Positions 9,213 to 9,349 of a DNA stretch of 24,000 nt are shown in pieces. A program made the translations under genes and the position numbers. The stretch is from Bacteroidia bacterium. GTDB lineage: Bacteria; Bacteroidota; Bacteroidia; B-17B0; Aurantibacillaceae. The notes beneath the pieces were generated by a model, which worked only from the letters and a program-made list of their open reading frames with translations, did not search any database and was not told the origin of the DNA. Position 1 is the first letter of the stretch, and each line of letters starts with the position of its first letter. The DNA lies in contig JBIICN010000004.1 of assembly GCA_044238845.1 (NCBI GenBank), positions 73,785 through 97,784 on the forward strand, given 5' to 3'.

Positions 9213-9349
9213 TGATGAGGAAAAAAACGCATAGCATGTTTTTGTTGAGCTACTCTTGAATTTAATAAAGAGACGGGGCTCGAGCCCGCAACCTTTCTGC
9301 TATTAACAGAACGCTCTACCGATGTATTGCTAAACTACGTCACTCATCA
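9213..9349 (-). ncRNA. Y-RNA-like element Yl-4 with a D-loop-permuted, otherwise complete tRNA module
   Basis: The read begins UGAUGAG-U-GA-C-GUAGUUUAGCA-AUACAUCG-GUA-GAGC-G-UUCUG UUAAUAG CAGAA-AGGUU. It continues GCGGG CUCGAGC CCCGU-CUCUU UAUUAAAUUC AAGAG-UA-GCUC-AACAAAAACA-UGCUAUGCG-U6-UC-CUCAUCA. Confidence 0.6.

Follow-up and report, generated by a model that had tools for sequence, protein, structure and literature searches.

We identified a conserved family of Rsr-associated Y-like RNAs in Bacteroidota in which a tRNA-shaped core is joined to the Y scaffold through the D-loop, a reading to which we assign a probability of about 0.78. Two members of the family, Yl-4 and Yl-8, are encoded on the minus strand of the window, by which we mean the complete stretch of 24,000 nucleotides that was analyzed (contig JBIICN010000004.1, positions 73,785 to 97,784; Table 1). 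The D-loop-joined RNAs are a variant of the YrlA-type tRNA-mimicking Y RNA; they are not members of the Rfam family RF02553 and they do not represent a new kind of system. They were filed as a YrlA-type variant because they share the linkage to Rsr and the tertiary signature with YrlA, whereas their strand order and Rfam score do not fit that family.

Yl-4 and Yl-8 Are Encoded in a Chromosomal RNA-Repair Island

The window covers a chromosomal island of RNA-repair genes in a Bacteroidota bacterium, and the nearest loci were found in MAGs labelled Bacteroidota, Chitinophaga or Flavobacterium (Rsr identity of 59-96% among GTDB genomes). A gene encoding a WYL-domain regulator is divergent from Rsr. 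The interval between Rsr and a tRNA-Lys gene is occupied by an array of Y-like RNA genes, and the Y-like RNA genes of the window have the 5' module R-U-G-N-CGUA...UAC(U/A)UC in common. Five of these modules are located at approximately 10055-9054 and a sixth at 5485-5343. Ten tRNA genes were predicted by ARAGORN and Rfam, one at 8979-9052 and nine in an array at 13104-14010. Yl-4 starts 967 nt downstream of the end of Rsr on the same strand, within the distance used to define YrlA (less than about 4 kb from Rsr on the same strand; PMC4201824), and Yl-8 lies about 4.8 kb downstream of Rsr in the same gene string.

A phage origin of the locus, suggested by the tRNA cluster, was considered and rejected, as the locus is chromosomal Bacteroidota DNA. 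A blastn search against 50,697 phage records returned the tRNA-Lys gene as its sole match, and a search of IMG/VR with a pattern specific for the D-loop junction gave no matches.

Table 1. Features of the RNA-repair island and elements of its Y-like RNAs, in coordinates of the window. R1, covariance model of the D-loop-joined family.
Feature	Position	Strand	Evidence or remark
Rsr (Ro60 ortholog; TROVE and Ro60 vWA domains)	10316..11833	-	Pfam TROVE 4.3e-30
RtcB ligase	6447-7874	-	Domain annotation; conserved synteny
DUF5677	5501-6511	-	Flanks Yl-8; conserved synteny
RlaP nucleotidyltransferases (two)	4567-5331, 3504-4604	-	Flank Yl-8; conserved synteny
RtcB-DUF5677-RlaP-RlaP gene string, operon partners around Yl-8	3504..7874	-	
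Second RtcB, PrfH-like RF-1-domain protein and FtsH-like protease	14693-18796	-	
Yl-4, complete D-loop-joined Y-like RNA, P1 5' to P1 3' strand	9213..9349	-	151 bits, R1 seed member
Yl-4 P1 5' strand UGAUGAG, partner CUCAUCA at 9213-9219	9343..9349	-	RNAfold
Yl-4 GACGUAG, variant of GNCGAAN0-1G (proposed Rsr contact)	9335..9341	-	Motif definition PMC4201824
Yl-4 P3 5' strand UAGCA, partner UGCUA at 9232-9236	9328..9332	-	Helix 3 covariation
Yl-4 5' linker AUACAUC into G18	9321..9327	-	Family consensus UACUUC
Yl-4 G18 G19 U20 A21, 3' part of D-loop	9317..9320	-	GG in 23/24 distinct homologs
Yl-4 D stem 3' strand GAGC (tRNA positions 22-25), trans partner at 9247-9250	9313..9316	-	100% paired, n=24
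Yl-4 G26	9312	-	
Yl-4 anticodon-like arm UUCUG-UUAAUAG-CAGAA	9295..9311	-	Stem covaries, loop variable
Yl-4 variable loop A44 G45 G46 U47 U48	9290..9294	-	A44 and G46 invariant
Yl-4 T arm GCGGG-CUCGAGC-CCCGU	9273..9289	-	Helix 6 100% paired; family T loop UUCAANN
Yl-4 closed acceptor-like hairpin CUCUU-UAUUAAAUUC-AAGAG	9253..9272	-	Helix 7 covariation
Yl-4 U8 A9	9252-9251	-	UA in 22/24 homologs
Yl-4 D stem 5' strand GCUC	9250-9247	-	
Yl-4 A14 A15 C16, 5' part of D-loop	9246-9244	-	A14 in 24/24
Yl-4 A-rich 3' linker, D-loop back to P3	9237..9243	-	
Yl-8, second D-loop-joined Y-like RNA, between DUF5677 and RlaP	5347..5481	-	84 bits, outside seed
Yl-8 D stem strands	5445-5448 and 5382-5385	-	
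Yl-8 GAAA-tetraloop arm CAACCA-GAAA-UGUUUG	5427-5442	-	
Yl-8 T arm	5404-5420	-	
Yl-8 acceptor hairpin	5388-5403	-	
Yl-5, YrlA-layout paralog; its intact D arm, UAGCUCAGUGGUUAGAGC, follows T arm and acceptor hairpin	9054..9208	-	YrlA 29 bits
Yl-3, YrlA-layout paralog	9354..9485	-	Rfam YrlA 21.9 bits

The Core of Yl-4 and Yl-8 Is Arranged in a D-Loop-Permuted Order

The first-pass annotation had read the apical part of Yl-4 as a complete cloverleaf with its natural ends joined and its new ends emerging from the D-loop, so that the D stem is formed in trans by GAGC and GCUC. All the elements that it listed were located at the places it gave, on the minus strand. In tRNA numbering, the RNA runs from the 5' strand of the scaffold through G18G19U20A21, G22AGC25, G26, the anticodon-like arm, nucleotides 44 to 48, the T arm and the acceptor 3' strand into the acceptor loop, and continues through the acceptor 5' strand, U8A9, G10CUC13, A14A15C16 and an A-rich linker into the 3' strand of the scaffold. 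The scaffold stands in the place of position 17, in the alpha region of the D-loop. The length of this region varies among tRNAs.

Constraint-free folding had been proposed as a check of this topology, and unconstrained RNAfold returned it for Yl-4. The minimum free energy structure (-35.6 kcal/mol) consists of the basal stem and two further helices, followed by a four-way junction that is closed by GAGC/GCUC and encloses three hairpins; the pairing probability of the GAGC/GCUC stem is 0.98-0.99, in agreement with the proposed trans D stem. The linkers at the D-loop junction are single-stranded in both the MFE and the consensus structure and have lengths of 7 nt and 7-13 nt. A local hairpin UAC-UUCG-GUA that would sequester G18G19 was considered and rejected, as its predicted pairing probability is at most 0.08 in all 24 distinct sequences of the family. 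Yl-4 and its nearest relatives carry a C at T-loop position 54 (CUCGAGC), which is off the family consensus; an example with the consensus T loop is the ortholog at 12314-12466 of L016.

Yl-8 had been proposed to have the same topology with a tetraloop on its arm, and this order can indeed be read between 5347 and 5481. Yl-8 lacks G19 (G19U) and contains one arm mismatch which is absent from its orthologs. The YrlA layout suggested for Yl-3 and Yl-5 was also borne out: in both, alignment to the Rfam YrlA model places the T arm first, then the acceptor hairpin and then an intact D arm, though with scores below the gathering score of 69. In the Rfam YrlA consensus, the scaffold is followed by the T arm, the closed acceptor and the intact D arm (GCUCA..GGUAGAGC) before the scaffold resumes. 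The motif G-N-CGUA-R is kept in all six Y modules of the window and is one position off the published GNCGAAN0-1G.

Homologs Are Conserved Downstream of Rsr, RtcB or RlaP

When 19 Rsr loci of GTDB genomes were searched by blastn with Yl-4 and Yl-8 as queries, copies at 68-97% identity were identified. A covariance model (R1) was built from seven seed sequences, including Yl-4, which carried the structure proposed in the first-pass annotation. With this model Yl-4, itself a seed member, scored 151 bits (E ~1e-35) and Yl-8, which is independent of the seed, scored 84 bits (E ~1e-18), values far beyond chance; the Yl-8 orthologs in four loci (L002, L015, L021, and L027) reached 98-104 bits. The scores of the D-loop-joined class (84-152 bits) are separated by a gap from those of the other Y-like RNAs (at most 61 bits). 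The exception is a copy in L012 (11820-11960) which scores 60 bits and has the D-loop-joined order too, with GAAC/GUUC as D stem. The junction-specific pattern identified 19 additional metagenomic contigs. A genome search for the permuted topology had been suggested, and with the covariance model it led to a family of 32 copies in genomes and metagenomes of Bacteroidota, among which 24 sequences are distinct; the carriers were MAGs throughout. The topology, a tRNA-like core with a closed acceptor end that is linked to the Y scaffold from the D-loop, is kept in the 24 distinct homologs.

Every copy with sufficient contig flank is located on the same strand as, and downstream of, Rsr, RtcB or RlaP. 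The Yl-4 type is found inside the Y array, and in four loci (L023, L028, L034, and L037) two D-loop-joined copies directly follow Rsr. The Yl-8 type always occupies a gap of about 160 nt that has RtcB or DUF5677 on its upstream side and the first RlaP gene immediately downstream. No promoter of its own was detected for Yl-4, either as a Bacteroidota -7 box (TAnnTTTG) nearby or in a sigma-70 scan, and the only "terminator" returned by a terminator scan at Yl-4 was the T arm itself.

The constant position of the Yl-8 type in the gap upstream of RlaP and the results of the promoter and terminator scans at Yl-4 would also agree with a cis-acting role, in which the fold, especially that of Yl-8, punctuates the operon mRNA and is mainly an RNase P/Z-type processing signal or a stabilizing signal. 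There is a precedent for such cleavage, as the YrlA RNA of M. smegmatis is cut by RNase P (PMC4201824). A cleavage signal, however, has no need of the full Y basal module with its putative Rsr motif, which is kept by compensatory changes, and the acceptor-like stems, often shorter than 7 bp, would be poor substrates for RNase P. We consider a mainly cis-acting role improbable. The D-loop-joined Y-like RNAs are likely to be co-transcribed with the operon and released by processing.

Compensatory Changes and tRNA-Like Tertiary Positions Support the Fold

Pairs were counted on an alignment of the 24 distinct sequences that was fitted to the model. Paired cells amounted to 95.0%, compared to 75.2% in shuffled alignments and 34-48% when the structure was slid by 1-3 columns. 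The covariation score was 0.586, against 0.205 for the shuffles (0 of 500 reached the observed value) and 0.055-0.138 for the slid structures. Double changes were found in 24 of the 36 pairs. They occur in five of seven pairs of P1 (helix 1, 97.6% paired), four of five pairs of P3 (helix 3, 97.5% paired), all five pairs of both the anticodon-like stem and the acceptor-like stem (helix 7), and three of five pairs of the T stem (helix 6, 100% paired); P2 was 82% paired. Because this alignment had been fitted to the model, RNAalifold was also run on a plain MAFFT alignment, which comprised 17 diverse members. Its de novo prediction contained P3, the three hairpins and the trans D stem, and a compensatory change was seen in 22 of the 29 predicted pairs, so that alignment-based folding, which had likewise been proposed as a check, recovered the same structure.

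The trans D stem is 100% complementary and near-invariant. Its sole compensatory change is G24-C11 to A24-U11, by which GAGC/GCUC becomes GAAC/GUUC, and the carriers are the Cytophagales copies in L013 and L012, which probably reflect one event. Most helices of the fold, including the acceptor hairpin, covary; the trans D stem contributes one change and complete pairing. In single-sequence MFE predictions the trans D stem is present in 17 of the 24 homologs and another fold is preferred in the other seven. The support for the D stem consists mostly of conservation, energetics and tertiary covariation. For YrlA, "extreme conservation" of the D and T stems has been described (bioRxiv 10.1101/312249).

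The tertiary covariation concerns the Levitt pair 15:48. Nucleotide 15 directly follows GCUC-A14, and its partner, nucleotide 48, ends the variable loop some 60 nt further upstream. G:C is found in 11 sequences and A:U in nine, giving 20 of 24 compatible combinations (permutation p<5e-5), and the pair switches within both the Yl-4-like and the Yl-8-like group. G18G19 is present in 23 of 24 sequences and U8A9 in 22; A14, A44, G46 and G53-C61 are invariant in all 24, and the T-loop positions U55, C56 and A58 are conserved. These conserved tertiary positions are sensible only if both D halves meet in a tRNA fold.

The same data bear on whether the RNAs could be decaying, non-functional remnants of a recombination between tandem tRNA or Y-RNA genes. 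Some degeneration is visible: both copies in the window are off consensus (C54 in Yl-4, G19U and the arm mismatch in Yl-8) and the copy in L001 is without most of its acceptor hairpin. Decay would not account for 24 distinct sequences from loci of which the Rsr proteins are 59-98% identical to that of the window, with helices kept by compensatory substitutions and with invariant tertiary positions, and we regard this explanation as extremely improbable.

The Anticodon-Like Arm and the Acceptor-Like Stem Are Variable

The first-pass annotation had described the anticodon arm as canonical, with the anticodon AAU. This is correct for Yl-4, but it does not apply to the family, as the loops vary among homologs. 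A 7-nt loop is found in about half of the homologs, and the loop sequence YUAAUNN recurs in three sub-lineages; in the other homologs the arm ends in a GAAA tetraloop, in a loop of three or 6 nt, or in an extended hairpin of 25 nt. U33 and R37 are present in the group to which the window belongs and are not kept across the family. Judged from the aligned sequences, the anticodon-like arm is a structural helix and not a decoding element. The acceptor-like stems have lengths of about 3-10 bp and are found without a discriminator or CCA context.

ARAGORN called no tRNA in the native order of the RNAs. After in-silico re-permutation, for which the acceptor loop was opened, the stem was padded to 7 bp and the D-loop was closed with one U, it called a tRNA in 20 of the 24 sequences. 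The Rfam tRNA model (RF00005) gave the D-loop-joined RNA 18.8 bits, compared to a gathering score of 29.

Such calls would be expected of a permuted tRNA gene, the product of which would mature by removal of the Y stem, ligation of the D-loop ends (e.g., by RtcB) and opening of the acceptor loop by RNase P/Z. Two RtcB ligases are encoded nearby, and a D-loop-permuted tRNA gene is known from a red alga (PMC3978253). Maturation into a tRNA is nevertheless difficult to reconcile with an anticodon loop that is not conserved, with acceptor stems of 3-10 bp that have no discriminator or CCA context, and with a junction at which the MFE and consensus structures contain only single-stranded linkers and no bulge-helix-bulge (BHB) of the 3-nt/4-bp/3-nt form. 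Moreover, the conserved Rsr-type motif in what would be the leader argues for a stem that is functional and not discarded. Taken together, a permuted tRNA gene is very improbable.

The arm could also be a target of ribotoxins. As a decoy or damage sensor, the anticodon-like arm would be cut by anticodon nucleases and would thereby titrate them or signal to the WYL-regulated operon, with the Rsr-bound stem holding the fragments together for RtcB and RlaP. The wiring of the D-loop-joined RNAs frees the anticodon-arm hairpin, unlike that of YrlA, and the recurrent 7-nt and YUAAUNN loops would suit such a target. The operon carries genes for RtcB and RlaP as well as a tRNA array, and RlaP is reported to refill damaged tRNA with nucleotides prior to ligation (PMC12776372). 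The rsr-rtcBA operon of Salmonella is reported to be induced by tRNA damage (PMC7790460). Against a decoy function, the loop varies in sequence and size, with GAAA tetraloops, triloops and extended 25-nt hairpins, and U33 and R37 are not maintained. We regard the decoy function as unlikely. Quite unlikely, too, is a wider version in which the RNAs are more than passive tethers: as full-length tRNA surrogates held by Rsr, they would serve as bait and sensor for the WYL-controlled RtcB/RlaP operon, their exposed arm being attacked by ribotoxins and then repaired, or, more radically, RNase P/Z and RtcB would convert them into free molecules that resemble tRNAs. If such processing were true, they would be the first bacterial permuted tRNA genes.

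Proposed Role of the D-Loop-Joined Y-Like RNAs

We propose that these RNAs are composed of two modules. The basal module, which consists of P1, the G-N-CGUA-R motif, P2 and P3, recurs in all paralogs of the array and would be the Rsr-binding part. The apical module is a full tRNA-shaped core that comprises the closed acceptor-like hairpin, U8-A9, the D stem, the anticodon-like hairpin, A44-R45-G46-N47-Y48 and the T arm. The core is joined to the basal module via the alpha region of the D-loop, where the 5' strand enters at G18-G19-U20-A21-GAGC and GCUC-A14-R15-Y16 exits to the 3' strand; the D stem is assembled from two distant segments, and the "anticodon" end is left as a free hairpin. The core is expected to adopt the L-shape of a tRNA, and by analogy to known Y RNAs the D-loop-joined RNA would bind Rsr (PMC4201824; bioRxiv 10.1101/312249).

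On the same analogy, the function of the RNAs is probably the tethering of Rsr or the docking of an effector in the RNA-repair operon. The RNA would tether or gate Rsr and offer its tRNA mimic to a partner that binds tRNA; the most plausible candidates are the tRNA-repair enzymes encoded in the operon itself or tRNA enzymes of the host. The operon enzymes are the most plausible clients of the mimic because they act on broken tRNAs: RlaP extends the 3' ends of damaged tRNAs by 1-2 nucleotides prior to ligation (PMC12776372), and RtcB seals the break. The D-loop junction would set Rsr beside the elbow, at the outer corner of the L, with flexible linkers between stem and core, and leave the anticodon-arm end exposed, whereas in YrlA the Rsr-bound stem extends from the anticodon end of the L. 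With two wirings in one array, the same mimic could be presented in different orientations, which could select different partners.

Comparison With Known Systems

The absence of the family from current RNA models was evident in the Rfam search, in which only the tRNAs of the window reached the gathering score. The Rfam YrlA model gave no match to Yl-4 at E<=10 and 23.8 bits for Yl-8, against a gathering score of 69; the current Y-RNA model RF02553 thus misses the D-loop-joined class. In Rfam 15 and the searchable full-text literature we found no description of a D-loop-joined Y RNA; the searches led to YrlA and Yrn1, discussed below, and an earlier mention is possible.

Permuted tRNA-like molecules are known from other settings. 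The type I permuted tRNA genes of Cyanidioschyzon merolae (junction 20/21) have the same order, with ends that emerge from the D-loop (PMC3978253). They are eukaryotic and encode genuine tRNA precursors, which have a BHB at the junction and are matured by splicing endonuclease, ligase and RNase P/Z. The Yl-4/Yl-8 family, in contrast, lacks a BHB, a conserved anticodon and a 7-bp acceptor, and its "leader" and "trailer" form a conserved Ro-type stem. In the two-piece tmRNAs of alpha-proteobacteria and cyanobacteria, which are encoded by permuted genes, the tRNA-like domain is also in permuted order. They differ in consisting of two chains with a free, chargeable acceptor end, and they are unrelated to Rsr.

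Among Y RNAs, the first-pass annotation had considered two permutation points of a tRNA fold in one family to be undescribed. Within the sources searched, this is upheld for the junction in the D-loop, whereas a second tRNA-like orientation as such has a precedent in Yrn1 of D. radiodurans, an Rsr-bound RNA with a strand order unlike that of YrlA and a possible "anticodon arm" (PMC4201824). Yrn1 resembles the present family in that it demonstrates that Y RNAs can bear differently wired tRNA-like modules. It differs in having no clear D arm or variable loop and a weak tRNA likeness, and dihydrouridine was not detected in it (PMC4201824); furthermore, an independent evolutionary origin is ascribed to it, and it does not occur as a paralog alongside YrlA-type copies in a shared array.

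The closest relative is YrlA (RF02553; S. Typhimurium, PDB 6CU1), which is likewise encoded beside Rsr on the same strand in an RNA-repair operon. YrlA shares the basal stem, which bears a similar though not identical 5' motif of the G-N-CG-A type, the closed acceptor-like hairpin, the UUCRA T loop, the D stem GCUC/GAGC, G18G19 and the G15:C48 / A15:U48 covariation (PMC4201824; bioRxiv 10.1101/312249). Binding by Rsr and modification by TruB and DusA are further marks of YrlA. It has been described as a "circularly permuted tRNA with closed acceptor stem" with the anticodon stem as connector (bioRxiv 10.1101/312249). The difference is in the wiring: YrlA has a local D-arm hairpin and its scaffold departs from the anticodon stem, whereas Yl-4 and Yl-8 have a local anticodon arm and a scaffold that departs from the D-loop between positions 16 and 18. 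As far as the predicted structures allow, this suggests that a large helix may be inserted at position 17 of the D-loop without loss of the tRNA fold. A dimeric pre-tRNA origin has been proposed for YrlA (bioRxiv 10.1101/312249), and one may speculate that it extends to the present family, as the segment of a tRNA dimer from D-loop to D-loop gives exactly the order seen here. The partner of the tRNA-like domain of bacterial Y RNAs has been proposed to read the elbow together with the D and T stems, which are conserved (bioRxiv 10.1101/312249). The second wiring keeps these stems and the elbow nucleotides, with the Rsr-bound stem attached at the elbow and no longer at the anticodon end. The presence of both wirings in one array therefore provides a natural comparison, in which a surface that is conserved and accessible in both is a candidate binding site and in which effectors that require a free elbow can be separated from those that require a free anticodon arm.

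Apical designs of the Y-like RNA genes

In the Y-like RNA array linked to Rsr, the Ro60 ortholog, and at homologous loci in Bacteroidota, a single conserved basal module carries several apical designs (see Table). The D-loop-joined class, in which the tRNA-like core is connected to the basal stem through the D-loop, also occurs in a lineage that is more distant, with about 65% identity in Rsr, where two copies approximately 390 nt apart lie in tandem immediately following Rsr. In the alignment, AAU at the 'anticodon' positions of a 7-nt loop was seen again in three sub-lineages of this class; the loop otherwise varies freely. 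The recurrent AAU loop may be an ancestral remnant or may reflect a lineage-specific constraint.

A further conserved Y-like class is present at the Rsr loci of Flavobacterium. Its apex reads GGGGAGGAAUAGC-(20-nt loop)-GCUAUCC-GGUUCGACUCCGG...GCCCC and includes a hairpin resembling a T arm, without D-arm motifs. Two matches to the Flavo-1 RNA motif sit inside the array of the window, between Yl-2 and Yl-3. The stronger lies just under the gathering score of 42, at 39.4 bits; the other, in inverted orientation, reaches 22.5 bits. An inverted repeat of about 17 bp is common to both.

Features of the window and of homologous Rsr-linked loci (L numbers)
Feature	Position	Strand
Array with conserved basal module	9054-10060	-
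YrlA layout apex (intact D arm, joined at anticodon stem)	Yl-3, Yl-5	-
D-loop-joined apex	Yl-4, Yl-8	-
Apex of T arm and one hairpin only	Yl-2, 9816-9922	-
Non-tRNA-like apex	Yl-1, about 9925-10060	-
Tandem D-loop-joined pairs	L023:6220-6754, L028:13027-13561, L034:1379-1912, L037:5739-6273	
7-nt AAU loop	window group; L034/L023:6610; L023:6220	
Flavobacterium Y-like class	L019:11808-11950, L010:12398-12538, L018:11799-11941, L009:12456-12596	
Near-threshold Flavo-1 match	9659-9741	+
Weaker Flavo-1 match, inverted copy	9532-9626	-
Inverted repeat	9607-9677	
WYL/WCX regulator	11934-13082	+
Probable additional tRNA gene	13676-13765	-
ORF-free stretch	14012-14690	-
RtcB2/PrfH-like/FtsH-like module	14693-18796	-

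Surroundings of the Rsr operon

The tRNA array probably contains one more tRNA gene, for which ARAGORN and the Rfam tRNA model gave no call. The predicted fold (MFE z-score -2.7) is a cloverleaf whose variable arm is long and whose anticodon loop, CUUGAAA (UGA), is Ser-like. The D arm is odd, with a 5-bp stem and a 4-nt loop lacking GG, and the tRNA-Sec model scored 35.5 bits against a gathering score of 47. In the approximately 680 nt from the tRNA array to the FtsH-like gene, no ORF of at least 80 aa was found. The many overlapping matches in this stretch were weak, scored far under the threshold in every case and belonged to unrelated models of leaders and sRNAs; further structured RNA may be present here.

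The Rsr operon is accompanied by a divergent WYL/WCX regulator, which is not RtcR, and is followed by the RtcB2/PrfH-like/FtsH-like module, the tRNA array being located between operon and module. RtcB2-PrfH is a ribosome rescue-and-repair pair.
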